Source of the DNA: a virus
Strand: one strand, 5' to 3'
UHGV virus genome: UHGV-1464328
DNA: 33,516 nt
Notes under the pieces: model-generated
Told to the model about the DNA's origin: nothing
The model's database searches: none
Seen by the model: the letters and a program-made list of their open reading frames with translations, nothing else
Translations under genes and position numbers: made by a program
Shown: positions 2,003 through 33,516 of the stretch, piece by piece
How positions within the stretch are numbered: position 1 is the first letter of the stretch
Layout: every line of letters begins with the position of its first letter

Positions 2003-5000
2003 ATGGCAAACGAAATTAAATTTATTCGGTTTAAACGAACCGAGACAGCTGGCCGCATTCCTACTGCTGCGCAGATAGAAATTGGTTCTGTAGCTCTTAA
2101 TATGGCCGATAAGGCCATATTTTCTAAAAATGCCGCAGGGCAAGTTGTTCAGTTCACTGGTGCCGGCGCAGATATGCCAGCTAAAACTGTTACTGCAACA
2201 GGTACTATCAAGTCAAATACTGGAGTGCAAGCTGGAAATGCTAAACTCGGTACTGACGGCAATATTACTGGTGGCTCTAAATTCGGTGGGAACTTAGATA
2301 ATTATCTGAACTCAATTAAGGGTGAGATCTCTTCTACGGATAAAGCTGCTGTTAAGAAAGCTGGTGATGTAATGACAGGTCCGTTAGTAATTAATACATC
2401 GGGTAATTCTGACCCTGCAGTAAATGGACTTTCTGTGTCTGGATCTCAACATACTCCTATTATGTTAACCCGCAACACAGATAAGAACCTCAACATAGGA
2501 TTTAAATTAACAGGCGGTTCAACTGTCATTAACCGAAAACTTGGTATTGATTCTGATGGCACTCTACACTGGGGACCTAATGATAACCAAGCTGCTAACG
2601 GGCGTGTAGTTACTCAAGATTATATTGATGACAATATAACTGAACTTAAAGGCGGTTATAGAGGTTCAGAAGTTGGGGTTGATTTAGGTGGTTGGAACGG
2701 TTCTGTTAATGACTTATTCATTGGGAACAGTGAAGACATTGGTACTGTAAGGACATGGTTCTGTGCATCAATGGCTGGTGGTAATAATATTACCGATGTA
2801 CCGGCTGGTAAAGGAAACTTTGTACTTCGTGTTGAAAGTCTTCGCGCCGCAAACGGTGTAGACTATAAAAATAAGCAAACTTTTATTAGTGGTGATGCAA
2901 GTAAAACGTACGTTCGCTATGGGGCAGGAACAGGAACAACAACCGCTCCTAAAATGAATTGGGGGCCTTGGTTAGTATCTCAAGAATTTTCTAATGGAGT
3001 TACACCTATATCTAACGGTGGTACAGGCGCTACTACTGCAGGAGATGCCCGAAATAATTTAGGTCTTAGAACTGCTGCTGTACGTGATGTTGGTGAATCT
3101 AGCGGAAACGTAATGGAAGTTGGTGCCTTTGGTATTGGTGGTGTCGGAAAATCAATAGTAGATATTACGTCTGATGTTGATTTAATGACTCGTCTTAAAG
3201 CTATTGGTGGTACAACGTTTAGAGCTAACGTTAAAACCACAGATGGCAAGCCTGTTTGGACAGGTCCAGGATTTTACTCCCATGGTTCCGGTTTTTATTC
3301 TAGGGCTGGCGATACCATGACTGCGCTTAATATAGATTACGCAACTGGTAACGTTAGAGTATTCGCTATTAATGATAGTAATCTTAACGCTGGCAAAGTA
3401 AACCATAACATGCTCTACGGTACTGCTAATAAACCTTCTAAGGATGATGTCGGACTTGGTAATCTAACAAACGATGCTCAAGTTAAGAAAGCCGGTGATA
3501 CCATGACCGGAGATTTAACTGCTCCTAATTTTCACGCTTCTGGACCGGGAACGGCATCAGTGTATGTTAATGCAGGAAGCGGAAACGCTCATGTATGGTT
3601 TAAAACAAACGCCAATGAACGCGGTGTAATTTGGGCAACTCCAAATACTTCAGATCTCGGCCAGATTAATATTCGTGCAAAAACTACTGGAGGTACTTCT
3701 GCTGGTGATTTTAGTTTCCGTTCTGATGGTCGATTTGATGTTCCTGTAGCAGTTAAAGTTGGTGGAGCAGCAATGCTAACCAAAGACGGAAACATCACCT
3801 CTGGTTCAATGTTTGACGGTAACCTTAACAACTATTTGACTTCTATTAAAAACGATATCATTGCTGGCGATAATAAGCAAGTAAGTAAAACTGGCGACAC
3901 AATGACCGGTAACTTGACTATTAACGCTAACTTAAGAGTCGAAAACCCTAATGGAACAATGGTTGATTTAGGTTCAGAGAACTCAGACAAGTACAGCAGA
4001 CTGACTCTCTCGCGTAAAGTTGGCGACGGCGCTGCTGTGGCAATGCTTAAAATTACTCCTGAAGGATACGTGCAATTTGGTTATCAAACTGCAGTTTCTA
4101 CTCCAGCTCCTACCAAGTACATCCGAGTTAAACCTGACGGTCTTGATGTAGAAGGGGATTTGGTTTTTAATCAGACATATCGTGGTTCTGAAGATGCAGT
4201 TGATATTTCTGATAAGACTATTGATCTTAATGATCTAGTTATTAAAAAAACTGGTTTAGGCACTCGTCAATTATACAAATGCATTTCTTCTGGCGGTGGT
4301 TCTAAGATAACGAATAAACCTACATCTGATGGCAACTTTGTTCTCGAAGTTCTGTCTTTGCGTAAAGTTTCTGATACTGACTGGTCGTGTAAGCAGACCT
4401 TTACTACAAAGAATAATACTACCGTTGGCACATACGTTCGCTATGCACAAAATGGTTCATGGACTGCATGGCAAGAAGTTGTATCTGGTGTTCAACCTAT
4501 TAATTTAGGTGGTACTGGAGCAACTTCTGTAGCTGCTGCCCGTAATAACCTTGGTGTTGGCGAAGGACAAACAGTATCATTCGGCAATTTAGTTACCAAC
4601 GATTTAACTGCAAACGGAAATGCTAGATTAGTTGGAAGATTGAATCTTGGTTCTACTTCTGCAACTGGCGTATTACGAGCTAATGAAGGTGGTGCGGTTG
4701 TTTTAGGTTCTGCGAGCGGTCAAAATATCCATGTTAGAGCAGGAACTCCTGATTCCTCTACAGGTGAAACCCGTTTTGAGCCAAATGGAAACGTTGTAAT
4801 TGGTGGCGCGTTGACCGCTTCTGGAAATTTACAAGTAAATGGTGAAGCCACGTTAAGTAGAAGTTTAATCGTTTCTCAAAATATAAAGAATACTAACGAT
4901 AACAGTTTTATTCTGATGGGGAAAGATTCTGATTTAGGCTTCGTCAAAAAATCTGGGTCAAGTTCTAGATTGGCATTTGCTTCAGGAAAATCATTCGTTG

Positions 5001-6097
5001 TTTCTAAATCTTCAGCAACTGCTATAAGTAATCCAGGATCAGAAACTTATACCGATGTGTTTAAAGTAGATGCTGACGGAAACCAAACAGTCTATGGAAA
5101 TTCAACAATTTCTAGGGCTTTGACAGTATCAAGCGTTATTAATGCTAATGGCGGTATCATTGTTCCTACTACTAAGTATGTGCAAATTGCTGATGCTCCG
5201 ACGCAGAATAACCAAGCTGCTAACAAAAAATATGTTGATGATCGGATTAACACCCGTTTAGCAACCGCAGGTGGTACTGTAACTGGCGATTTAAATGTTA
5301 ACGGTACTGTTGGACTTAAAGGACAAGTCGTTCTGAGTAAAGACTTAACTGTTAATAATGGCAAAATTAGTGCTCAGGCGATCGAATTATCAATGGGTAC
5401 ACCTTATATTGATTTCCATTTCAATAACAGTAGTTCAGATTACACGACGCGTCTTATTGAGAACACATCTGGGGAGCTAACCCTTGAAGGTGCATTTATG
5501 TGTAAAAAACATATGTATGCATGGGGTGCTGTGATGGCTCGAAACATAGCTCCTACGAATCCTCCTAATGGAACACTTATAACAGGTGCGCCATTACAGT
5601 CTATGACAGAAGGACGAGGCGGTAACGGAGACGCTCGGGGGCTTGTTGCTAACTTCTACTCTGAAGAGTTGGTTGGTACCTCTCATCGCGCGGTTATCTA
5701 TCTTGATGGGCATAAACGAACTGATGCATGGATTTTCAATGCTGGGGGCGTCATTGATACACCTACAGGTGCTGTTCAGACTGCAGGTTCTGATATCAGA
5801 CTGAAAAGTAATATCACTCCTGCAAAAGATGGTGCTCTGGAGCGGATCATGAAGCTCGGAACTGTAGAGTTTGACATGAAGGGCGAAACCCGTCGTCGCA
5901 GAGGTTTTATTGCTCAACAGGTTGAAAAAGTTGATGCTGGTTATACCTTTCAAGGTAATGAACAAACGATTGATGGCGAGAAAATCAAGATCTTAAACAT
6001 CGATCAGACTGCTATTGTCGCTGACTTAGTAAGTACCGTTCAGGAACAACAGAAGCTTATTCTTGAACTTCAAAAACAAATTAATACTCTGAAATAA
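2003..6097 (+). CDS. L-shaped/side tail fibre, 1364 aa, with a C-terminal peptidase-S74 intramolecular chaperone (auto-cleaving) domain.
   Basis: The C-terminal ~100 aa contain SDIRLK (a Ser-x5-Lys dyad, as in endosialidase and T5 pb1 chaperone domains). Three KKAGDxMTGxL fibre repeats. Two GGTGAT...ARNNLG motifs. Gly/Ser/Thr-rich fibre composition. Confidence 0.85.
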   Translation: MANEIKFIRFKRTETAGRIPTAAQIEIGSVALNMADKAIFSKNAAGQVVQFTGAGADMPAKTVTATGTIKSNTGVQAGNAKLGTDGNITGGSKFGGNLDNYLNSIKGEISSTDKAAVKKAGDVMTGPLVINTSGNSDPAVNGLSVSGSQHTPIMLTRNTDKNLNIGFKLTGGSTVINRKLGIDSDGTLHWGPNDNQAANGRVVTQDYIDDNITELKGGYRGSEVGVDLGGWNGSVNDLFIGNSEDIGTVRTWFCASMAGGNNITDVPAGKGNFVLRVESLRAANGVDYKNKQTFISGDASKTYVRYGAGTGTTTAPKMNWGPWLVSQEFSNGVTPISNGGTGATTAGDARNNLGLRTAAVRDVGESSGNVMEVGAFGIGGVGKSIVDITSDVDLMTRLKAIGGTTFRANVKTTDGKPVWTGPGFYSHGSGFYSRAGDTMTALNIDYATGNVRVFAINDSNLNAGKVNHNMLYGTANKPSKDDVGLGNLTNDAQVKKAGDTMTGDLTAPNFHASGPGTASVYVNAGSGNAHVWFKTNANERGVIWATPNTSDLGQINIRAKTTGGTSAGDFSFRSDGRFDVPVAVKVGGAAMLTKDGNITSGSMFDGNLNNYLTSIKNDIIAGDNKQVSKTGDTMTGNLTINANLRVENPNGTMVDLGSENSDKYSRLTLSRKVGDGAAVAMLKITPEGYVQFGYQTAVSTPAPTKYIRVKPDGLDVEGDLVFNQTYRGSEDAVDISDKTIDLNDLVIKKTGLGTRQLYKCISSGGGSKITNKPTSDGNFVLEVLSLRKVSDTDWSCKQTFTTKNNTTVGTYVRYAQNGSWTAWQEVVSGVQPINLGGTGATSVAAARNNLGVGEGQTVSFGNLVTNDLTANGNARLVGRLNLGSTSATGVLRANEGGAVVLGSASGQNIHVRAGTPDSSTGETRFEPNGNVVIGGALTASGNLQVNGEATLSRSLIVSQNIKNTNDNSFILMGKDSDLGFVKKSGSSSRLAFASGKSFVVSKSSATAISNPGSETYTDVFKVDADGNQTVYGNSTISRALTVSSVINANGGIIVPTTKYVQIADAPTQNNQAANKKYVDDRINTRLATAGGTVTGDLNVNGTVGLKGQVVLSKDLTVNNGKISAQAIELSMGTPYIDFHFNNSSSDYTTRLIENTSGELTLEGAFMCKKHMYAWGAVMARNIAPTNPPNGTLITGAPLQSMTEGRGGNGDARGLVANFYSEELVGTSHRAVIYLDGHKRTDAWIFNAGGVIDTPTGAVQTAGSDIRLKSNITPAKDGALERIMKLGTVEFDMKGETRRRRGFIAQQVEKVDAGYTFQGNEQTIDGEKIKILNIDQTAIVADLVSTVQEQQKLILELQKQINTLK

Positions 6098-6113
6098 GCC
6101 GGGAAACCGGCTT
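6096..6113 (+). terminator. Stem-loop aagccgg-GAAA-ccggctt (GNRA loop) overlapping the fibre gene stop. Weak U tract.
   Basis: Seen directly. Followed immediately by a late-like motif. Confidence 0.4.
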
Positions 6114-6123
6114 AATAAATACA
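6112..6123 (+). promoter_or_regulatory. Late-promoter-like motif TTAATAAATACA, 26 nt upstream of the ATG at 6150.
   Basis: Exact family consensus. RBS AAGGAAATAAAATG downstream. Confidence 0.55.
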
Positions 6124-11329: not shown

Positions 11330-11623
11330 ATGATAGGAGATATCACTGTATATCTTGCGATTGCTTCACTTGTGGGAGGATTAATAACATGGGGAATATC
11401 TGAGATAAGAAGAAAGTACTCTAATAAAGAAGACCTCGAAAGACGTATCACAGCTATCGAGTCGAAATTAGATATTAATAGTACTAACAGTAAGAATTAT
11501 CTTGAGCGTCTTAATGAAATTAAAGATGCATTAGTAGATATTCGTACAGAAATTCGGACTATTGAAGAAAGGACCCGTGGAAATGAAATTCAACTAGCAA
11601 GAATAGAAGGTCGTAATGATTAA
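11330..11623 (+). CDS. Membrane-anchored coiled-coil protein, 97 aa (N-terminal TM segment plus a heptad-rich C-terminus). Candidate i-spanin or holin-regulator type protein.
   Basis: YLAIASLVGGLITWGI looks like a TM segment, then EDLERRITAIESKL...LERLNEIKDALVDIRTEIRTIEER. Confidence 0.5.
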   Translation: MIGDITVYLAIASLVGGLITWGISEIRRKYSNKEDLERRITAIESKLDINSTNSKNYLERLNEIKDALVDIRTEIRTIEERTRGNEIQLARIEGRND

Positions 11624-12098
11624 AAGAAAAGACATTCCTGATTACAAACAAGAGTTATATAAAAGACAGAACAAACGATGTGCTCTAACTGGTGTTCTAA
11701 TTGAAGACGTTAATAAAGCACATCTTGACCATGACCATAAACTTGATGGACCCGGTGCAGGAAGATGCAGGGGTCTTCTGTTAGGTCAAGCGAATGTTCT
11801 TGAAGGGCGTATCAAGCATCAGTTTGAACGCTCTGGTCTTGCCGGGAAAATCGGCTATATAGATTTTCTTAAAAATCTTGTTTGTTATCTGGAGGCTGAT
11901 TATACAGCTAATCCTAGACACCCTCAGTTAATCCCAGACCTCATTAAACGGTTCAGCCGTATGAACCTTAATACAATGAGACAAAAGCTCTTAGAGTGTC
12001 ATCAGGAAGCTTCTGGGACAAAGCAAGAACTAACTCATAGGTATAAGAAATACCTAAGGTCAAAATATGAAAATAAACCTCAAGGAGTGTGCGTCTAA
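11616..12098 (+). CDS. Recombination endonuclease VII (T4 gp49-like Holliday-junction resolvase), 160 aa.
   Basis: HLDHDHKLDGPGAGRCRGLLLGQANVLEGRIKHQFERSGL matches T4 EndoVII HLDHDHELNGPKAGKVRGLL...KHKFNRSGL. Overlaps the previous gene by 8 nt. Confidence 0.85.
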   Translation: MIKRKDIPDYKQELYKRQNKRCALTGVLIEDVNKAHLDHDHKLDGPGAGRCRGLLLGQANVLEGRIKHQFERSGLAGKIGYIDFLKNLVCYLEADYTANPRHPQLIPDLIKRFSRMNLNTMRQKLLECHQEASGTKQELTHRYKKYLRSKYENKPQGVCV

Positions 12099-13159: not shown

Positions 13160-13690
13160 TTATTTTTTCTCAAACATATTCAGTATTTCGTTATATACAT
13201 AATCATCTGATTTTAATAACTCAGGTACACTTCTGCGGTCTATGTGATTATCAGGATATCTATAGTATTCGCAAGGACAACCAGGTTCGCACTCATGCTC
13301 ACCAAGGAAATACTCTTTATCATAGACTTTCTTGCTTTCATCTATGAAAACATATTCAGTCATTGGCTTGGCAGAGGTTCCATCAAAATATTTCTTTTCT
13401 GAAATATCCATAGCGTTCCATTTTTCTGCGTTTTCTTTACTTATGTTAAACATTCTACGCACAGGATAATCATCGTATAGACCAAATCTGTAATTACCAG
13501 CTTCATCTAAGTAATAACGATGCGGGATGATTTCATTTTGATTTAAAGAAATCATTTCATCAAGTTCAGCTTTCCACTTAGGCATATTCTCAGTAGCCCA
13601 TTCAATCTCTAAAGTGTTCTTGTAGTAATTACAAGGACACGCAAGACCACATGAATGCTCACCCAGGTAGTATTCTTTTTCAGTTTTCAT
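13160..13690 (-). CDS. Cys-rich tandem-domain protein, 176 aa. Two copies of KEY(Y/F)LGEH-C-x3-C-P-C-xYY. Likely Zn-binding. Co-transcribed with the recombinase.
   Basis: N- and C-terminal 20-aa blocks are near-identical (EYYLGEHSCGLACPCNYY / EYFLGEHECEPGCPCEYY). Start overlaps the recombinase stop by 11 nt. Confidence 0.65.
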   Translation of the reverse strand: MKTEKEYYLGEHSCGLACPCNYYKNTLEIEWATENMPKWKAELDEMISLNQNEIIPHRYYLDEAGNYRFGLYDDYPVRRMFNISKENAEKWNAMDISEKKYFDGTSAKPMTEYVFIDESKKVYDKEYFLGEHECEPGCPCEYYRYPDNHIDRRSVPELLKSDDYVYNEILNMFEKK

Positions 13691-15197
13691 CAGAAGTTCC
13701 TTCTTTTAGTTTACGTAAATGCTCTTGTAGAGCTTTAGTATCTGCGTTTAACATTATCTTGCCGTTATTAACTATAAAGCTCTGATAATGCCCGTCAGTT
13801 TTTTCAATCTTAATCCTGATATTCTTAGGACCATTCAACTGAAAGATAGTTATTCTTTTAACTAACCGTTTTAGATATAGATTATACTGCTCGGCGTCTT
13901 TTATTGCAACCAATGTCTTGATATCAGCTGATTTTGGCGGTTGAACCTCTGGTTGCTCAAGAAGTTCTTGTAGTTCTTTCTCCAGCGTACTTATCGTTTT
14001 AAGTACAGAAACTGGAGGCATTTCCAATTCCAGAAGCATTTTGTTCAGTTGGTCTATCTTTTCACGCTTAGCTATTATCTGTTCATTCTTAATGTTCTTA
14101 ACTGAACGAGTTTTAATCTGTAGTTTATCAATAGCCTTTTCAAGAGGTATATGAAGGTCTCTAATAGCTTTGTTGTTCTTGCACCTGCCTTCAAATGAAC
14201 CGAAGCAATTAAAGTACTGGTACTCTTTAATTCCTTTTTTAGTTACTGATGTATTAACTTTCCTGCACAGAACAGCACCGCATTCACAATAAAGAACACC
14301 ACTGAATTTGTGTCTTGACGGTCGTCCTTTTGATACTCGTTTATCATCAAATTGAATTTGTGAAAATGTTTGATAATCAATCAGGGCAGGGTAGTAGTTT
14401 TCAATCAATGAAACAGGAATGTATTTTTCTTCAATAATCTGGTGTGTCTGATAAGCTCCGTAAAGAACTGGGCTTTTTAACAACCTCTTTACTGACATCT
14501 GGTACCATTGTTTTCCAGTTGGACCAGGAATGTTTTCTTCATTTAGTATGCGGGCAATCTTTCTAACGCCTTTTCCTTCAAGACGCATTTGAATAATTTT
14601 TCTCGCTAAATCAACACGTTTGTTGAACACGTACTTTTTGTTCTTCCTGTCATAATCAAGATAGAACACTGACTTACCGGGAAGGATTTCGCCATCAGCA
14701 GCTTTTTCACGGGCAATAGCCTTTGAAGCTTTAACAAGTTTTGATTTTCTTAATGACTCCTTGTGAGCTAAGTCAGCTGCTAGCGCAACTAATATCACTG
14801 AGCTTAAATCGTTCAAAGAGTCTTTGTTGAGGATATGTCCTTGAAGTGTTTTGGCATCTTCACCAACGAACGCGACCTTAACGTCGTACTGAAGGATTTT
14901 CTTCAGGATGTCTTGTGTATGGCTGATTCCTTTACGACTTAATCGGTCAATCGCCTCAATCAAGATATAACTGCCTGATGGGATATCACCAGTTTGAATG
15001 GCTTCAAGCATTTGCTCTAGCTCTGGGCGTCTGACGTTTTTGAACCCTGAGATGCCCAGGTCATGATAAGACTGATTGGACAGAGTTAGTCCATTTTGTG
15101 AACAGAACAGCTTAGAAGCATTTACCTGCCGTTCTAACGAAGTACCTGACGCTTGGTGCTTGGTACTGAACCTTACGTAACTGAATGCCAGTGTCAT
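13680..15197 (-). CDS. Large serine recombinase, 505 aa (resolvase catalytic domain, recombinase domain, Zn ribbon, coiled coil).
   Basis: N-terminal AFSYVRFSTKHQ is the YxRVSTxxQ catalytic-Ser motif. The recombinase core follows, then CECGAVLC...NCFGSFEGRCKNN, a Zn ribbon. Strong RBS GGAGG. Confidence 0.9.
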   Translation of the reverse strand: MTLAFSYVRFSTKHQASGTSLERQVNASKLFCSQNGLTLSNQSYHDLGISGFKNVRRPELEQMLEAIQTGDIPSGSYILIEAIDRLSRKGISHTQDILKKILQYDVKVAFVGEDAKTLQGHILNKDSLNDLSSVILVALAADLAHKESLRKSKLVKASKAIAREKAADGEILPGKSVFYLDYDRKNKKYVFNKRVDLARKIIQMRLEGKGVRKIARILNEENIPGPTGKQWYQMSVKRLLKSPVLYGAYQTHQIIEEKYIPVSLIENYYPALIDYQTFSQIQFDDKRVSKGRPSRHKFSGVLYCECGAVLCRKVNTSVTKKGIKEYQYFNCFGSFEGRCKNNKAIRDLHIPLEKAIDKLQIKTRSVKNIKNEQIIAKREKIDQLNKMLLELEMPPVSVLKTISTLEKELQELLEQPEVQPPKSADIKTLVAIKDAEQYNLYLKRLVKRITIFQLNGPKNIRIKIEKTDGHYQSFIVNNGKIMLNADTKALQEHLRKLKEGTSDEN

Positions 15198-17283: not shown

Positions 17284-17769
17284 ATGACATTATATGAAAT
17301 GCTCCGCTTTGATGAAGGCGAGAAACTACAAGTTTATAAAGACACCGAAGGATATTGGACTATTGGTATTGGTCATTTATTGACTAAGAACCCATCTAAG
17401 GAACAAGCCATCGCTTGTCTTGATAAAGAACTAAAACGAGTTACTTCTGGCGTTATCTCAAAATCAGAGTCAGAACAGCTGTTCAATCAGGACACCTCTA
17501 GGGCACTCCAGGACATTTCCCGCTCAGAATTGAGTTCCATATACATTCAAATGAATGGACCTCGTAGGGCTGCTCTGGTGAACATGGTGTTCCAGTTAGG
17601 GCTCACTGGTGTGTTGAAGTTCACTAAGATGGTTAAGTACCTCAAAGCACAAAATTATGAAGCAGCTGCTGATGAGTCATTGGATAGTCGTTGGGCAAGA
17701 CAGACACCTAATCGTGCTCGTCGTGTATCTGAGGTTATTCGGACAGGAACCTTTAGTTCTTACAGTTGA
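17284..17769 (+). CDS. Endolysin, T4 lysozyme (GH24) family, 161 aa.
   Basis: [35 protein letters not shown] matches T4 e [35 protein letters not shown]. Glu11, Asp20 and Thr26 are conserved. C-terminal NRARRV matches NRAKRV. Confidence 0.95.
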   Translation: [161 protein letters not shown]

Positions 17770-25441: not shown

Positions 25442-25471
25442 TATTATCTCCAGTCAATTTTTTGACATAAG

Positions 25472-25500
25472 CTTTAAAAAAGAACCTCTCCGAAGAGAGG
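25472..25500 (-). terminator. Minus-strand rho-independent terminator cctctc-UUCG-gagagg followed by UUCUUUUUU.
   Basis: Reverse complement of aaaaaagaacctctccgaagagagg. It lies upstream of the HTH gene, so it terminates transcripts coming from the control region. Confidence 0.6.
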
Positions 25501-25569
25501 GGTTATACAACACATAGTGTTAATAGAGTAATTATATCAAAGATATCTTAAAGCAAATAACCTTTAATA

Positions 25570-25715
25570 TAAAATCTATATTTCATTATTTTAAAAATGA
25601 AACGTTTATTTTAGCGGTTTTGGCGTTTTATTTCATTTTCGGATACAGGTACCATTTATTTCGGCAAATGTTTCAGTCGTTTTCCTAAATGAAATGTTTT
25701 ATTTCATTTTCATCA
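25570..25715. repeat. Cluster of TTTCATT / AATGAAA repeats, including inverted pairs and TTTTATTTCATTTTC x2.
   Basis: tttcattattttaaaaatgaaa; ttttatttcattttc (25629 and 25697); aaatgaaatgttttatttcattttc. Confidence 0.65.
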
Positions 25716-25733
25716 GCAGTACTGATTACAGAT

Positions 25734-25743
25734 ATATTTATTA
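25734..25743 (-). promoter_or_regulatory. Late-like motif on the minus strand (GTAATAAATATATC), with no ORF downstream.
   Basis: Plus-strand atatttatta. Points leftward into the repeat region and the 25472 terminator. Confidence 0.4.
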
Positions 25744-25799
25744 CACTGATTTTTCGTCTTATCGTTAGAAATTGATTTGTTCATTAATTAATCACTCTG

Positions 25800-25815
25800 C
25801 CCGGCCGAAGCCGGG
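25800..25815. other. GC hairpin cccggc-CGAA-gccggg (UUCG loop on the minus strand) in the non-coding region.
   Basis: Seen directly. Confidence 0.5.
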
Positions 25816-25973
25816 TCTTATGAGCTTAACAACAGGAGAACTACCGACGAACGGTGAACACAACCACTAAGGATTACCATAAAGGGCTCTCCGCCAAAAG
25901 AACCCTTGAGTTAATACCTATGGAATCTCAATCTTTAACAACGCTAAGGACCACCACAATCCTTGATACAATT

Positions 25974-25983
25974 ATATTTATTA
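25974..25983 (-). promoter_or_regulatory. Second minus-strand late-like motif (CCGTAATAAATATAAT) in the non-coding region.
   Basis: Plus-strand atatttatta. The extended match resembles the 31505 copy. Confidence 0.4.
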
Positions 25984-26065
25984 CGGTGTTTAGCACCCAT
26001 TTTAGATGCACTCAATCAAAACGAATAAGTGTCACGAGGTTAAGATGCAACTTCTGTCATTAGTT

Positions 26066-26235
26066 TTGACATCAGAAATTGCATTATATTTTGTGCAAGT
26101 TGTTGAGTTTTAAACACATTTCATAACTATGGGATTCAGATTATACAAATTTGACATCTCAAATACCATAGAAATTGCATAGTGCAATTTGTCCAGGAAA
26201 ATGCAATTTCTGAACTGAAAAATGCAATTTGTCCA
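26066..26235. repeat. Iteron/operator array. Five copies of AAATTGCAT / ATGCAATTT in both orientations, including the palindrome AAATTGCAtagTGCAATTT. TGCAATTTGTCCA occurs twice. TTTGACATC occurs twice.
   Basis: 26076-84, 26172-80, 26182-90, 26201-09, 26222-30. TTGACA at 26066 and 26151. Confidence 0.7.
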
Positions 26236-26398
26236 TCAAAAACAGCTACTAAGTTATTGAGATTAAAACAATTGTTGTCCCTTTAAATATAGTCTAACCT
26301 TTGTTTTCAAGTAGACTTTCAACAATGAACCACAGAAAAGTGGTCCATTATTCCAAGTAACTTTCAATACAAACTTCTAACGAAGTTCCACCAAAAAG

Positions 26399-26514
26399 AT
26401 TGTGAAACTCCGCCCGAAGGGCGGATAGACTAATAGTTTTATAAACCAATGGTGAAAAGCCAGTACAGAAACAAAGACTATCGTCGAGGCTAAAGCCTCT
26501 CCGAGTTTCACAAT
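26399..26514. other. About 116-nt element closed by a 12-bp perfect long-range inverted repeat (ATTGTGAAACTC ... GAGTTTCACAAT). It encloses two hairpins (ccgccc-gaag-ggcgg and gaggct-aa-agcctc). Candidate structured RNA or cruciform DNA site.
   Basis: Seen directly. Confidence 0.5.
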
Positions 26515-26555
26515 TGTTCTTTAACTATCTTTGTTTGAAGTACTACCAGAATTAT

Positions 26556-26627
26556 CCAGATTAAATCTGGTACCAGACTAGTTCCAGTCTTTATATTTCC
26601 ATTCCAAACCAGTTAAATCAATCTGGA
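26556..26627. repeat. CCAG-box repeats. CCAGATTAAATCTGG (7-bp arm palindrome) and CCAGTTAAATCAATCTGG about 53 bp apart. Nine CCAG in about 120 bp.
   Basis: Seen directly, about 300 bp upstream of the HNH-terminase operon. Confidence 0.6.
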
Positions 26628-26738
26628 TGCATTCCAGAACATCTAGTACAACAACCAGTTTCTATCTTGTTTCTCCACGAGCAAGCTCGTTCCGAAACGA
26701 CGCTTCGCGTCTACTTGTTATTTGCTATAAAAACTTGT

Positions 26739-26747
26739 TGGTATAAT
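26739..26747 (+). promoter_or_regulatory. Extended -10 promoter TGGTATAAT (no good -35), directed toward the HNH/terminase genes.
   Basis: Perfect TATAAT with a TGn extension. Confidence 0.4.
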
Positions 26748-26866
26748 GGTTTTAGTCCTTCCAATTAATACTAATCAGACTGGTAATAGATAGACCAGAT
26801 AGATTAGCCAACCAGATTGTGCTTTAGCACTACTTCTAGTTAAAGCAATTCCGTTCATTTCCAACG

Positions 26867-26906: not shown

Positions 26907-27413
26907 ATGAAAATGTCTAAATCTTATAACTCTATTCCATATTCTCTGGTAGAAAAGCTCTTCGTAATTGACTCATCTTCCAAAACTGGTATTGCTTGGA
27001 AAAAGAATTCCCGTCCTGCTGGTACAGTTCTTCCAAGTGGTTATTGCCAGGTTCGTGTTCCTTCTTCTGATAAGAACTTATTCGTTCATACACATCGTAT
27101 TGTATGGATGCTCGCAAATAAAAAAGACATTCCAGATAAGTCTTATCACGTTGACCATCTTGATTTTGACCGTACAAATAACCGTCCTGAAAATCTTCGT
27201 CTGATTAAACGTTATTGGAATATCACTCGTCGTCAAGATAAAAAATCTGATGGTCTTCCTTCTAATATCTACAAGAAAGCTGATGGTAATTTCTTTGCTC
27301 AGTTTAGTTTTGAGGGCAAAGGATATCGACACGATGATGAGTCAGTCCAGAAATGCCAAGAATGGTTAGATAAAAAACGTGCTGAAGTTATCGGCATAAT
27401 GGAAGAATTCTAA
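26907..27413 (+). CDS. HNH endonuclease, 168 aa. Terminase-associated (cos-cleavage helper) type, judged by its position.
   Basis: HVDHLDFDRTNNRPENLRLI is the HNH motif. Sits directly upstream of the large terminase. Confidence 0.85.
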   Translation: MKMSKSYNSIPYSLVEKLFVIDSSSKTGIAWKKNSRPAGTVLPSGYCQVRVPSSDKNLFVHTHRIVWMLANKKDIPDKSYHVDHLDFDRTNNRPENLRLIKRYWNITRRQDKKSDGLPSNIYKKADGNFFAQFSFEGKGYRHDDESVQKCQEWLDKKRAEVIGIMEEF

Positions 27414-31504: not shown

Positions 31505-31515
31505 TAATAAATATA
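31505..31515 (+). promoter_or_regulatory. Late-like motif TAATAAATATA upstream of the capsid ORF. It is followed by a hairpin before the ATG.
   Basis: Family consensus. Unusual order of motif, then hairpin, then gene. Confidence 0.4.
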
Positions 31516-31523
31516 AACATACC

Positions 31524-31549
31524 GAGCAACTTCGGTTGCTCTTTTCATT
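31524..31549 (+). terminator. Hairpin gagcaac-UUCG-gttgctc plus ttttc. It is either the portal gene terminator or a 5' leader hairpin of the capsid transcript.
   Basis: Seen directly. Confidence 0.6.
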
Positions 31550-31562
31550 CAAAGGACCAACT

Positions 31563-33516
31563 ATGTTAAAGCTCAAGCGAGAATATACGGTCCAGGAAAT
31601 TCAAGCATCTGAAGACGGTACTTATGAAATCGCTTTTAGTTCTGAAACTCCTGTAGAACGTCAAATTCAAGATGAGTATGGTCAGCCTGTTACAGTTAAT
31701 GAAATTCTTGTCCACGATGGTCCAGAAAATGCAGACCTGACTCGAATTAATAACGGTGCAGCACTTTTGTTTAACCATAATTTTGATAACCATCTGGGTA
31801 TTGTTATTCCTGGTTCTGTCCGAATTGATGCAGACCGTGTTGGTCGTGCAGTGGTTAAATTTAGTAAGCATGGCCAATTAGCTCAAGAAGTACAAGCAAA
31901 AGTCGACGAAGGGACAATTAGTAAAATCTCTTTCGGTTATGACATTAACGAATACGAACTCAAAGGTGATGACCTTATTGTTACTCATTGGGCTCCGTAT
32001 GAAATCTCTTTCGTAACTGTCCCTGCTGACGACAAAGTTGGACTTGGACGGTTAATAAATACATCTGACACAGCTTCTGCTGTAAAAATTTCAAATTCAA
32101 ATAAAGGAAACTCCCGAATGAAACGTTACGAAGAAATGTCTGTTGAAGACATCGTTGAAATGACTATTGAAGATTTAGCAGATATGTCTGTTGAAGATAT
32201 TGAAGCTCTAACTGATGAAGCTCGCGCTAAGCGTGAAGAAATTCTTGAAGAAGACAAAATTGAAGCTGAGCAAGCTGGTGATTCTGCTGTTAATGCAACT
32301 GATGATGCTCCGGCTCAAGCTCCTGCTCAAGATGAACTTTCTGAAGAAGAACGAGAAGAAGAAACCGAAGAAATTCTCGAAGTAGCAGAACGCTATAAAG
32401 TTTCTCAGAAAGAAGTTGCTAAAGCTCTGGCTCGTGGAATGACCGCTCGTCAGTTCAAACGTTCTATTAAACCTAATAAAGCTCCGGCGGTAATTCGTAA
32501 TATGCGCAAAGATAATAAAGAAACTCTCGAAAATCGTTTTGATTTAGGCGAAGCTGTTCGCTCCATGATGTCTGGTAAAGCTGTTCGCGGCGCTGCTGCT
32601 GAATATACTCAGGAAATGACTCGTAAACGTCTGGCTCGTGGTCAGAACGTAAGCACCGGTATCTATCTGCCCGTTAACGCTCTGGCTCAGAATTCTCGTG
32701 CTATCAACACCGTTCCGAGTGTTTCTGCTATCCAAGAAACTGTTCAGCGTTATGACTCTTTCGTTGAAATGCTGTTAAAAGGCACTGTAGCCGATCAGCT
32801 GGGTGTTAATTTCCTGACTGGCCTGACTACTCCGATCTCTGTTCCTAAGCAGACTAAGAGTTCTGTTGATGCATTCGGCTTCGTTGATGAAAACGGTGAA
32901 AGCCCGGAAGGTGAAAGCTCGTTCACCAACATTCAGTTCATGCCGAAAACCTTTACTGGTGGTAACCCGATTTCTCGTCAGGCTCTGCTGACCATGCCTA
33001 ATCTGGGTGCATTCATTTCTGACCATATCGTTAAACATTCTCGCGCTAAGCTGGAAGGTCTGATGTTCGGTTCTGTAACTGATGCCAAAGCTCCAGAAAG
33101 CATCATCGCTCAGCTGGTAGCTCAGAAAATGGGTATGACCTATAAAGAGTTCGTTGTTGAAGCAGCTAAAGCTAAAGGCAATGGCGTTGATATGGCTGCA
33201 TTCAAATATCTGATGCACGCTGCTCTTGAAGGTGATTTGAAAACCACTCTGCGTGATGCTGGTGTTTCTGGTTATATCATCGATGATGAAAACCGTATCG
33301 GTGGTCATGACGTTATCGGTTCTGGTCTGGTTAAAGACGGACAAGTAATCGCTGGTGATTTCTCTGCTGTTACCGTTGCAGAATGGGAAGGTCTGGCTCT
33401 TGACCTGGACGATACTACTTATCGTAATCGTGGTGCTATCGTTCCTCGCGTATGGGCTGATATCGACTGGAAAGTCTGTGCAGATGACCGTCTGTTCCTG
33501 TACGAAAAAGGTACTC
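31563..33516 (+). CDS. Prohead protease (HK97-type) / acidic scaffold-like linker / major capsid protein, one continuous ORF. It is 3'-partial and runs off the window end (at least 651 aa).
   Basis: Translated by hand with no stop in frame 0 to nt 33516. N-terminal 170 aa contain the protease-like YEISFVTVPAD motif. Then EDIEALTDEARAKREEILEEDKIEAEQ...EEEREEETEE. Then the capsid part, with strongly optimal codons (ctg, cgt, ggt). Confidence 0.8.
   Translation, partial: MLKLKREYTVQEIQASEDGTYEIAFSSETPVERQIQDEYGQPVTVNEILVHDGPENADLTRINNGAALLFNHNFDNHLGIVIPGSVRIDADRVGRAVVKFSKHGQLAQEVQAKVDEGTISKISFGYDINEYELKGDDLIVTHWAPYEISFVTVPADDKVGLGRLINTSDTASAVKISNSNKGNSRMKRYEEMSVEDIVEMTIEDLADMSVEDIEALTDEARAKREEILEEDKIEAEQAGDSAVNATDDAPAQAPAQDELSEEEREEETEEILEVAERYKVSQKEVAKALARGMTARQFKRSIKPNKAPAVIRNMRKDNKETLENRFDLGEAVRSMMSGKAVRGAAAEYTQEMTRKRLARGQNVSTGIYLPVNALAQNSRAINTVPSVSAIQETVQRYDSFVEMLLKGTVADQLGVNFLTGLTTPISVPKQTKSSVDAFGFVDENGESPEGESSFTNIQFMPKTFTGGNPISRQALLTMPNLGAFISDHIVKHSRAKLEGLMFGSVTDAKAPESIIAQLVAQKMGMTYKEFVVEAAKAKGNGVDMAAFKYLMHAALEGDLKTTLRDAGVSGYIIDDENRIGGHDVIGSGLVKDGQVIAGDFSAVTVAEWEGLALDLDDTTYRNRGAIVPRVWADIDWKVCADDRLFLYEKGT
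32052..32063 (+). promoter_or_regulatory. Internal late-like motif TTAATAAATACA inside the protease-capsid ORF (encodes R-L-I-N-T). It is 54 nt upstream of an internal RBS and ATG.
   Basis: Exact consensus. The only intragenic copy found. Confidence 0.45.
32118..33516 (+). CDS. Candidate nested in-frame product (scaffold plus major capsid protein without the protease domain), from an internal ATG with RBS AAAGGAAA. 3'-partial.
   Basis: aataaaggaaactcccgaATG at 32103-32120. Codon bias shifts to high-expression codons downstream of this point. Confidence 0.4.
   Translation, partial: MKRYEEMSVEDIVEMTIEDLADMSVEDIEALTDEARAKREEILEEDKIEAEQAGDSAVNATDDAPAQAPAQDELSEEEREEETEEILEVAERYKVSQKEVAKALARGMTARQFKRSIKPNKAPAVIRNMRKDNKETLENRFDLGEAVRSMMSGKAVRGAAAEYTQEMTRKRLARGQNVSTGIYLPVNALAQNSRAINTVPSVSAIQETVQRYDSFVEMLLKGTVADQLGVNFLTGLTTPISVPKQTKSSVDAFGFVDENGESPEGESSFTNIQFMPKTFTGGNPISRQALLTMPNLGAFISDHIVKHSRAKLEGLMFGSVTDAKAPESIIAQLVAQKMGMTYKEFVVEAAKAKGNGVDMAAFKYLMHAALEGDLKTTLRDAGVSGYIIDDENRIGGHDVIGSGLVKDGQVIAGDFSAVTVAEWEGLALDLDDTTYRNRGAIVPRVWADIDWKVCADDRLFLYEKGT

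Follow-up and report, generated by a model that had tools for sequence, protein, structure and literature searches.

A nested scaffold-capsid start predicted within a prohead protease-capsid fusion gene of a chromosomal-island virus genome

Fusions of a prohead protease, a scaffold and a major capsid protein in one open reading frame (ORF) are widespread and have been treated as single polyproteins. This view leaves open how a shell with one protease per subunit is avoided, and how the ratio of protease to shell protein is set. The virus genome UHGV-1464328 (33,516 nucleotides, all of which was analysed and is called the window below) carries such a gene, with an open frame that runs from an ATG at 31563 through 651 codons to the window end at 33516 without a stop. 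We find that the locus probably holds a nested, 3'-coterminal pair of genes in one frame, a full-length form with the protease and a scaffold-capsid form that would start at an internal methionine, M186. The original prediction for this DNA had proposed nesting of the lambda C/Nu3 type, extended to include the capsid protein, and what this reading predicts at the level of the sequence was found throughout. A conserved internal start, joined here by an internal promoter, would be a simple and testable answer to the question of the protease-to-shell ratio.

Layout of the fusion gene

The complete gene is present at the IMG/VR locus L002, which is 100% identical and encodes 660 aa (72.4 kDa); the window thus lacks the last nine codons and the stop. 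The single frame of at least 651 aa that had been proposed from 31563 is borne out by this, and its proposed order of a protease-like domain, an acidic helical linker and a capsid-sized domain agrees with Pfam, PHROG 617, the isoelectric point (pI) of the linker and an AlphaFold model. The full-length ORF (31563-33516, on the plus strand as are all features of the gene given here, and cut by the window end) begins with a Peptidase_S78 prohead protease domain (aa 1-163, 31563-32051), recognized in the AlphaFold model and by Pfam (PF04586, aa 63-157, 38.3 bits, cut-off 21). It ends in an HK97-fold capsid domain (aa about 387-651, 32721-33516), recognized by Pfam (PF05065 Phage_capsid, aa 399-642, 34.6 bits, cut-off 24.2), by PDB 8GTA and by Foldseek. 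Both profiles are above their curated cut-offs, and the S78 domain at the N-terminus and the HK97 fold beyond residue 250 lie where they had been expected. The profile phrog_617, "major head protein", matches aa 3-638 on its positions 8-612 of 626 (6.4e-80), and phrog_4523 bears the name "major head and protease protein". The acidic, helical, delta-like scaffold region spans aa 186 to about 386 (32118-32720), with 39% D+E and a pI of 4.05 over aa 186-270, and is presumed to be cleaved off at maturation.

The AlphaFold model was built on 23 relatives and has a mean predicted local distance difference test (pLDDT) score of 64.6. It has a confident beta-rich domain (residues 1-151), disorder (153-188), helices (194-358) and an HK97-type domain from about residue 400. 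The disordered part (32019-32126, pLDDT about 25) is a predicted tether, and its DNA doubles as the leader of the internal start. M186 lies at the end of this tether, directly before the first helix. The capsid domain matches the capsid of roseophage vB_DshS-R4C (PDB 8GTA) with E=2e-19, and the top Foldseek matches are the R4C capsid (8GTA), HK97 (1OHG and 8CFA), D3 and RcGTA, with a target TM-score of up to 0.75. In the protease domain, the candidate catalytic residues H72 (in FNH) and S123 (in S-F-G-Y) are invariant in the 23 relatives and are kept in ep3, VP882 and RcSaxon; a sequence search of the domain against the PDB gave no match. The R4C protein gp006 is itself a fusion of 629 aa, of which residues 362-629 (268 aa) make up the chain resolved in the capsid structure 8GTA. 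The N-terminal 361 residues, that is the protease and scaffold, are thus absent from the mature heads of a member of this family. By alignment to R4C, the mature capsid part would here start near residue 387.

The gene was compared with 44 IMG/VR loci, the phage record DCP80 and 120 database clusters, and all of them keep an open frame of 634-678 aa. Among the candidates examined there were 1615 relatives at E <= 1e-10, and the 120 best all have this length and both domains. No stop or frameshift, which had been named as what would overturn the prediction, was found, and a sequencing error or artefactual fusion is ruled out by the same open frame in more than 45 independent loci and the 120 clusters. 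The fusion has already been annotated in ep3, VP882, phiHAP-1, Rhodobacter phages ("major capsid and protease fusion protein"), Stenotrophomonas S1 and others. The hosts of the relatives are Klebsiella (98% identity), Enterobacter, Kluyvera, Citrobacter and Serratia, and a second clade is found in many Salmonella enterica; a scan of species-representative genomes returned only one distant metagenome-assembled genome. Longer ORFs also occur. At L043 and L044 (IMG/VR; a single ORF of 898-905 aa) and L055 (Synechococcus phage S-CBS1; >746 aa), about 290 extra residues are fused upstream of the protease domain.

Signals at the protease-scaffold junction

At the junction of protease and scaffold, a Shine-Dalgarno (SD) sequence, AAAGGA (32103-32108, duplex energy -5.6 kcal/mol), is separated by a 9-nt gap from the in-frame ATG of M186 (32118-32120), which would begin a product of 475 aa and 52.0 kDa. 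M186 is conserved in 10/10 sequences of group A and has an equivalent methionine in all other lineages. The order of elements is shared by all lineages of the two close clades, with xTAAATA right after the residues VGLGR, then a variable spacer, then an SD-like tract that precedes an in-frame ATG by 6-12 nt. Neither the length nor the sequence of the spacer is constant between lineages, and its indels are multiples of three. Overall, an SD and in-frame ATG just past the protease domain recur in about 19 lineages, down to 25% identity, and the residues encoded there differ. They lie 13-42 codons past the protease motif in the window, DCP80, L004, L006, L007, L008, L010, L011, the Salmonella clade and L043, as well as in ep3, VP882, phiHAP-1, RcSaxon, R4C, Alexa, phiRSP, PPpW-3, RcKemmy and Stenotrophomonas S1. 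The SD is encoded by NKG, KE, EG, LEA, KEV (in L043, at 25% identity) and other residues, and its persistence across such differences points to selection on nucleotides. The ribosome binding site and ATG at 32118 of the original prediction are therefore not only present but conserved across lineages at the nucleotide level. Among all lineages, L043 has the strongest internal SD (AAGGAGG, -12.3 kcal/mol). In a control within the gene, the chance of an equally good ATG and SD in 50-codon windows was 0-0.33 per lineage, and the product over 10 lineages is about 1e-16, for lineages that are not fully independent.

These signals bear on the reading of the gene as a single polyprotein, in which all subunits would be full-length, each would cleave off its own protease and scaffold, and the internal signals would be relics of an ancestor with two separate genes, or compositional accidents of a purine-rich linker. 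Current annotations ("major capsid and protease fusion protein", "HK97 family phage prohead protease") are worded in this way, and the papers on the fusion that were consulted (PMC5513430, PMC7302621, PMC8601537) mention no internal starts. The open frame is also clearly under selection. The junction spacer is open in all 45+ loci, whereas both other frames hold stops and shuffled spacers stay open in only 10-34% of cases in the close clades; the full-length protein is thus selected too. A single polyprotein does not account, however, for an SD and ATG that persist while the surrounding sequence and residues turn over. The fusion is old (25% identity between lineages), so relic signals should have decayed.

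The second signal at the junction is a motif of the kind found before other genes of the window. The 12-mer TTAATAAATACA (32052-32063, encoding Leu-Ile-Asn-Thr) recurs exactly at 6112-6123, 37 nt ahead of the major tail protein gene. Its core, the 9-mer TAATAAATA (32053-32061), occurs in 10 copies in the window against 0.89 expected, a number reached in 0/100 shuffles. Seven of the 10 copies are 33-58 nt before SD-bearing ORF starts, mostly of virion genes, and these include the copy at 31505-31513, 58 nt before the ATG of the full-length form. Two more are in a 1.4-kb region free of ORFs. The copy at 32053, 65 nt before M186, is the only one inside a long ORF, and the probability that the 9-mer falls by chance within the 100-nt stretch of the junction is about 1e-3. 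A scan for sigma-70 promoters found nothing at the junction.

The 8-bp element AATAAATA sits within TAATAAATA and is of the T4 late type. Promoters of this family were taken as an 8-bp element of the TATAAATA type that allows A at -13 or C at -12 and lies a short way before late genes. In T4 itself the late promoter is TATAAATA at -13 to -6, with A(-13) as a frequent variant, and the late promoters of Aeromonas phage Aeh1 have CTAAATA (PMC2988020, PMC1524935). The lineage motifs TATAAATA, AATAAATA and CTAAATA found here equal these published variants. The original prediction had noted an exact copy of a late motif within the ORF; the copy and its late-promoter type stand, and the motif is now better described as a variant of the T4-family late promoter on a chromosomal island.

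That the embedded motif acts as DNA, beyond its role as coding sequence, is argued most strongly by its co-variation with the motif that each lineage has before its genes. Upstream of genes and at the junction alike, the motif is TAATAAATA in the window, L002 and L003, TATAAATA in DCP80, CTAAATA in L004-L012 and the Salmonella clade, and TTAAATA in L010. The codon that precedes AAT at the junction is always NTA (CTA, TTA or ATA), even though CTA is a rare leucine codon here, and the Leu-Asn-Thr residues are absent from the distant relatives without the motif.

A rival explanation keeps the nesting, of the lambda C/Nu3 kind, and drops the promoter. The internal SD and ATG would be used, and the embedded TAATAAATA would not be an active promoter but conserved for its Leu-Ile-Asn codons or through shared ancestry. 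In ep3, VP882, phiHAP-1, RcSaxon and R4C the SD and ATG are held without the motif, which implies that nesting needs no promoter. Some of the conservation of the motif could stem from the protein, since it falls on partly conserved residues (L/S, I/L, N), and it stands farther from its ATG (65 nt) than any of the seven copies before ORF starts (33-58 nt). We nevertheless consider nesting by translation alone unlikely. Shared codons or ancestry do not explain why the junction motif switches among TATAAATA, AATAAATA and CTAAATA in step with the upstream-of-gene motif of each lineage, why the rare codon class NTA is always used, or why the 12-mer is identical to the copy before the major tail gene and is the sole intragenic copy of 10.

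The leaders of the two starts also differ in their predicted folds. The full-length start has an SD of the same sequence, AAAGGA (31551-31556, -5.3 kcal/mol). Between its motif and this SD is a 7-bp hairpin, GAGCAAC-TTCG-GTTGCTC (31524-31541), followed by TTTTCATTC. The hairpin alone folds with -10.8 kcal/mol (z -3.4) and was flagged as terminator-like, with a T-run behind it. An alternative fold of 31520-31575 pairs the SD itself (-13.2 kcal/mol, z -2.4). The hairpin could be a terminator for upstream transcripts, a 5' hairpin, or part of a fold that sequesters the SD. Relatives have hairpins at the equivalent place (L001, L004, L006, L007, L008, L011) with a UUCG or GAAA loop and differing stems; consensus folding of the leaders before the full-length start gave no consensus structure, as the hairpins are out of register in the alignment. 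In single-sequence folds, the internal leader is open and unstructured, in contrast to the first leader with its capacity to sequester its SD. A small hairpin, ACAGC-TTCT-GCTGT (32070-32083), would form at the predicted 5' end of the internal transcript, with a centroid structure of -6.6 kcal/mol that does not differ significantly from shuffled sequences. Hairpins with other stems, as read by eye, are present in the spacers of L004, L006 and L008 (ACAGC/GCTGT, GCGAA/TTCGC and GCGT/ACGC across the window and these relatives).

The ORF-free region that holds two of the motif copies spans 1.4 kb (25450-26860) and has no ORF above about 70 aa. Its copies are on the minus strand, at 25743 and 25983, with no gene start close downstream. 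Scans of the window for tRNA genes and Rfam families, this region included, found none. It is a candidate for non-coding transcripts, a packaging site or a replication site.

Codon usage and the predicted products

Codon usage was measured as the frequency of optimal codons (Fop), with the optimal codons of E. coli. It is 0.52 in the protease part, 0.73 in aa 186-313 and 0.81 in aa 314-651, and the other 20 ORFs of the window have a mean of 0.52 (sd 0.07, maximum 0.65). The protease part differs from the linker (p=3e-4) and from the capsid part (p=4e-11); the comparison of linker and capsid part gives p=0.09. Leucine is encoded by CTG in 2/12 cases in the protease part against 20/26 in the capsid part. 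A codon likelihood profile, for which the last 250 codons and the flanking genes were the sole training data, places the change point of the window at codon 273 (support 237-281), and its succession of low, middle and high values recurs in 10 lineages. The switch in codon usage begins at the protease boundary and is stepwise. The original prediction was right to see a switch to highly expressed codons but not in calling it abrupt, since it is graded from 0.52 to 0.73 to 0.81. Weak constraint does not explain the low bias of the protease part, because that part is at least as conserved in protein as the linker. Horizontal gain of the capsid half is an unlikely source of the contrast, as the profile recurs in 10 diverged lineages.

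The codon step bears again on the single polyprotein, since one translation stream cannot explain why Fop is 0.52 in one part of an ORF and 0.81 in another, a contrast that recurs in 10 lineages. Together with the persistence of the junction signals, this makes it decidedly improbable, in our judgment, that all subunits are made at full length.

The second rise, at codons 270-330, is not explained by M186, and the three levels of codon bias would be accounted for by a third nested start. The candidate is M314 (32502-32504), which would give a 37.5-kDa product with half of the scaffold. The Salmonella clade is where such a product is plausible. There, a second complete set of signals leads up to M334 (L013 4871-4930), namely CTAAATA, a gap of about 45 nt, AAGGA and a 7-nt gap to the ATG. 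This SD persists although the residues it encodes differ (IKDSKM, INKEKNM, INKESIM, INKEQIM), and the codon change point of the clade is at 317 (support 303-332). M314 is conserved in 10/10 sequences of the window clade, and DCP80 has a canonical AAGGAA there. In the window, on the other hand, M314 has a non-canonical GGCGGT and no TAAATA motif, and the change point at 273 is not at M314. The second step could also arise from stronger selection for accuracy in the conserved mature capsid than in the fast-evolving linker, and is itself at the p=0.09 given above. A third nested product is thus doubtful in the window, and we give three-tier nesting as the account of this gene very little chance.

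The reading of the gene as a nested pair with its own internal promoter has points that weigh against it, besides the spacing of the junction motif and its overlap with conserved residues. Taken alone, the window has an SD at M186 that ranks third of its 18 in-frame ATGs and a p of 0.2 in the within-gene control, which is weak evidence on its own. CTG use climbs only past about codon 260, not at M186, and codon bias does not level off before codons 270-330 or so. The window encodes no late sigma factor, and use of the promoter would depend on a factor from outside. Synonymous-site diversity was uninformative in both clades, with no usable junction columns in the window clade and low-diversity mosaic blocks elsewhere in the Salmonella clade.

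Expression from the nested pair would proceed as follows. Transcripts from the promoter at 31505, or read-through from the portal gene, would be translated from the ATG at 31563 into the 72-kDa fusion. The second T4-type late promoter, AATAAATA within 32053-32061 in the Leu-Ile-Asn codons just past the protease, would yield a shorter mRNA whose unstructured leader, SD (32103-32108) and ATG (32118) would direct synthesis of the 52-kDa scaffold-capsid protein. Ribosomes on the long mRNA could begin at 32118 as well. The short form would be favoured twice, by the internal late promoter and by an open internal leader as opposed to a first leader that can pair its SD. Most of the shell would be built from the 52.0-kDa form, which would behave like HK97 gp5 with its delta domain. 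Full-length subunits, as the minor species, would join the assembly by way of the scaffold-capsid part common to both forms, bringing the S78 protease into the procapsid. There the protease would remove itself and the scaffold to leave an HK97-fold shell with about 274 residues per subunit.

Island context and relation to known systems

The window is not part of a 141-kb lytic phage, as the record DCP80 might suggest. This assignment was rejected because the chromosomal copies are islands of ~34 kb and the DCP80 record mixes in T4-type genes. The window belongs to a family of such islands in enterobacterial chromosomes. In E. coli MS 115-1 the island (L051, NZ_CP146665 3135117-3169011, ~34 kb) lies between ybiT and ldtB. 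It encodes a siphovirus tail with tail fibres, a lysozyme and a large serine recombinase, and its defence cargo consists of a TIR protein and a reverse transcriptase of the retron Ec67 family. The islands have a complete siphovirus virion module and endonuclease VII, with gene blocks preceded by T4-family late-promoter variants, and in the ~34-kb copies no genes for replication, a repressor or a late sigma factor are recognisable. PHROG and Pfam scans of the window ORFs likewise found no homologue of gp55, gp33, a clamp or a sigma factor. With no late sigma encoded in the window, the specificity factor for RNA polymerase is probably supplied in trans, and the late promoters, the internal one included, would be read by machinery that probably comes from a T4-family phage. 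This suggests that the islands depend on a T-even-type helper phage, as a satellite-like element would; a search of the literature found no description of these islands as such elements.

Several other features of the island touch on T-even phages. The DCP80 record (L001, L052, PQ671644) joins about 26 kb of the island virion module to the T4-type genes motA, ndd, gp45, gp44, gp41, uvsX, gp32 and gp59, and contains two annotations of rIIA, which face opposite ways. The record is probably a chimera, assembled from a T-even phage and an island that co-purified with it, and if so it would hint at co-packaging in one lysate. Part of the 1364-aa tail-fibre gene (3017-5241) has about 85% DNA identity to long or L-shaped tail-fibre genes of 166-kb T4-like Klebsiella phages, which indicates that DNA was recently exchanged with phages of the T-even type. 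The window also encodes homologues of endonuclease VII (T4 type) and of the tail lysozyme (gp5 type), together with an HNH endonuclease adjoining the terminase (11616-12098, 17284-17769 and 26907-27413). The large serine recombinase (13680-15197, minus strand) is mid-window, and the window is therefore the excised or packaged form.

A broader reading would hold that protease-capsid fusions of tailed phages are nested in general, with shells made mainly of the internally started product and the full-length form as a minor subunit that delivers its own protease. In the enterobacterial clade, promoters of the T4 late type within the coding sequence would reinforce the nesting (at one level here and at two in Salmonella), and the capsid stoichiometry of the island would be set by the transcription machinery of a T-even helper. 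We offer it tentatively and regard it, taken whole, as possible rather than likely. The SD and ATG arrangement is weak in FoX1, and cyanophage S-CBS1 has the methionine with no SD. If the nesting is true, annotation pipelines miss the main capsid product, and expression of such capsids, those of the R4C type included, would give two products. Fusion genes would then also be linked to the arrangements of lambda C/Nu3 and herpesvirus UL26/UL26.5. The type of promoter ties the gene to T4-family late transcription on an island, which makes helper dependence a separate question.

Both the fusion and the principle of nesting are known, and the fusion architecture proposed in the original prediction is therefore not new in itself. 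What appears to be new is a nesting that includes the capsid protein, its apparent generality in the family and the embedded T4-type promoter, though an earlier description may exist. In lambda C/Nu3, a shorter protein is made from an internal in-frame SD and ATG in the protease ORF, and the shared C-terminus targets the protease to the procapsid. Lambda C is not an S78 protease, the lambda capsid protein E is encoded by a separate gene, and no internal promoter is known to take part. The window has the same order of modules as lambda, with terminase, W-like protein, portal and protease, whereas the shared C-terminal part comprises the scaffold and the capsid protein itself. For the internal promoter, the nearest likeness is T4 gene 49, for which Barth et al. 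in 1988 are said to have described two nested proteins, the shorter one reportedly driven by a late promoter inside the gene. If so, an 8-bp T4-type late promoter can fit within a coding sequence and drive a truncated in-frame product there as well, in a gene of different function (endonuclease VII).

In herpesvirus UL26/UL26.5, a more abundant mRNA begins inside the protease ORF and encodes the in-frame scaffold, while the full-length protein is minor and delivers the protease. The capsid protein is there a separate gene, unlike here, and the promoter is of the eukaryotic type. An arrangement of this kind is also seen in OsHV-1 (PMC11565193). The same three-part layout as in the window is found in the annotated fusions (PHROG 617 and 4523, actinophage clusters AN, AM, AU, EE and EL, Rhodobacter RcC, and R4C gp006, of which only the C-terminal 268 residues remain in the virion). 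The actinophage papers call the fusion an unusual feature (PMC5513430, PMC7302621). These genes are described as encoding single fusion proteins, whereas the proteobacterial ones examined here carry the SD and ATG at the boundary. HK97 shares with the window an S78 protease, an HK97-fold capsid and an N-terminal helical scaffold region, which is cleaved off in HK97 and presumably here, and the predicted M186 product would be the equivalent of gp5. The HK97 protease gp4, in contrast, is a separate gene product that enters the procapsid by its own C-terminal tail, whereas here the protease is joined covalently to the capsid subunit.

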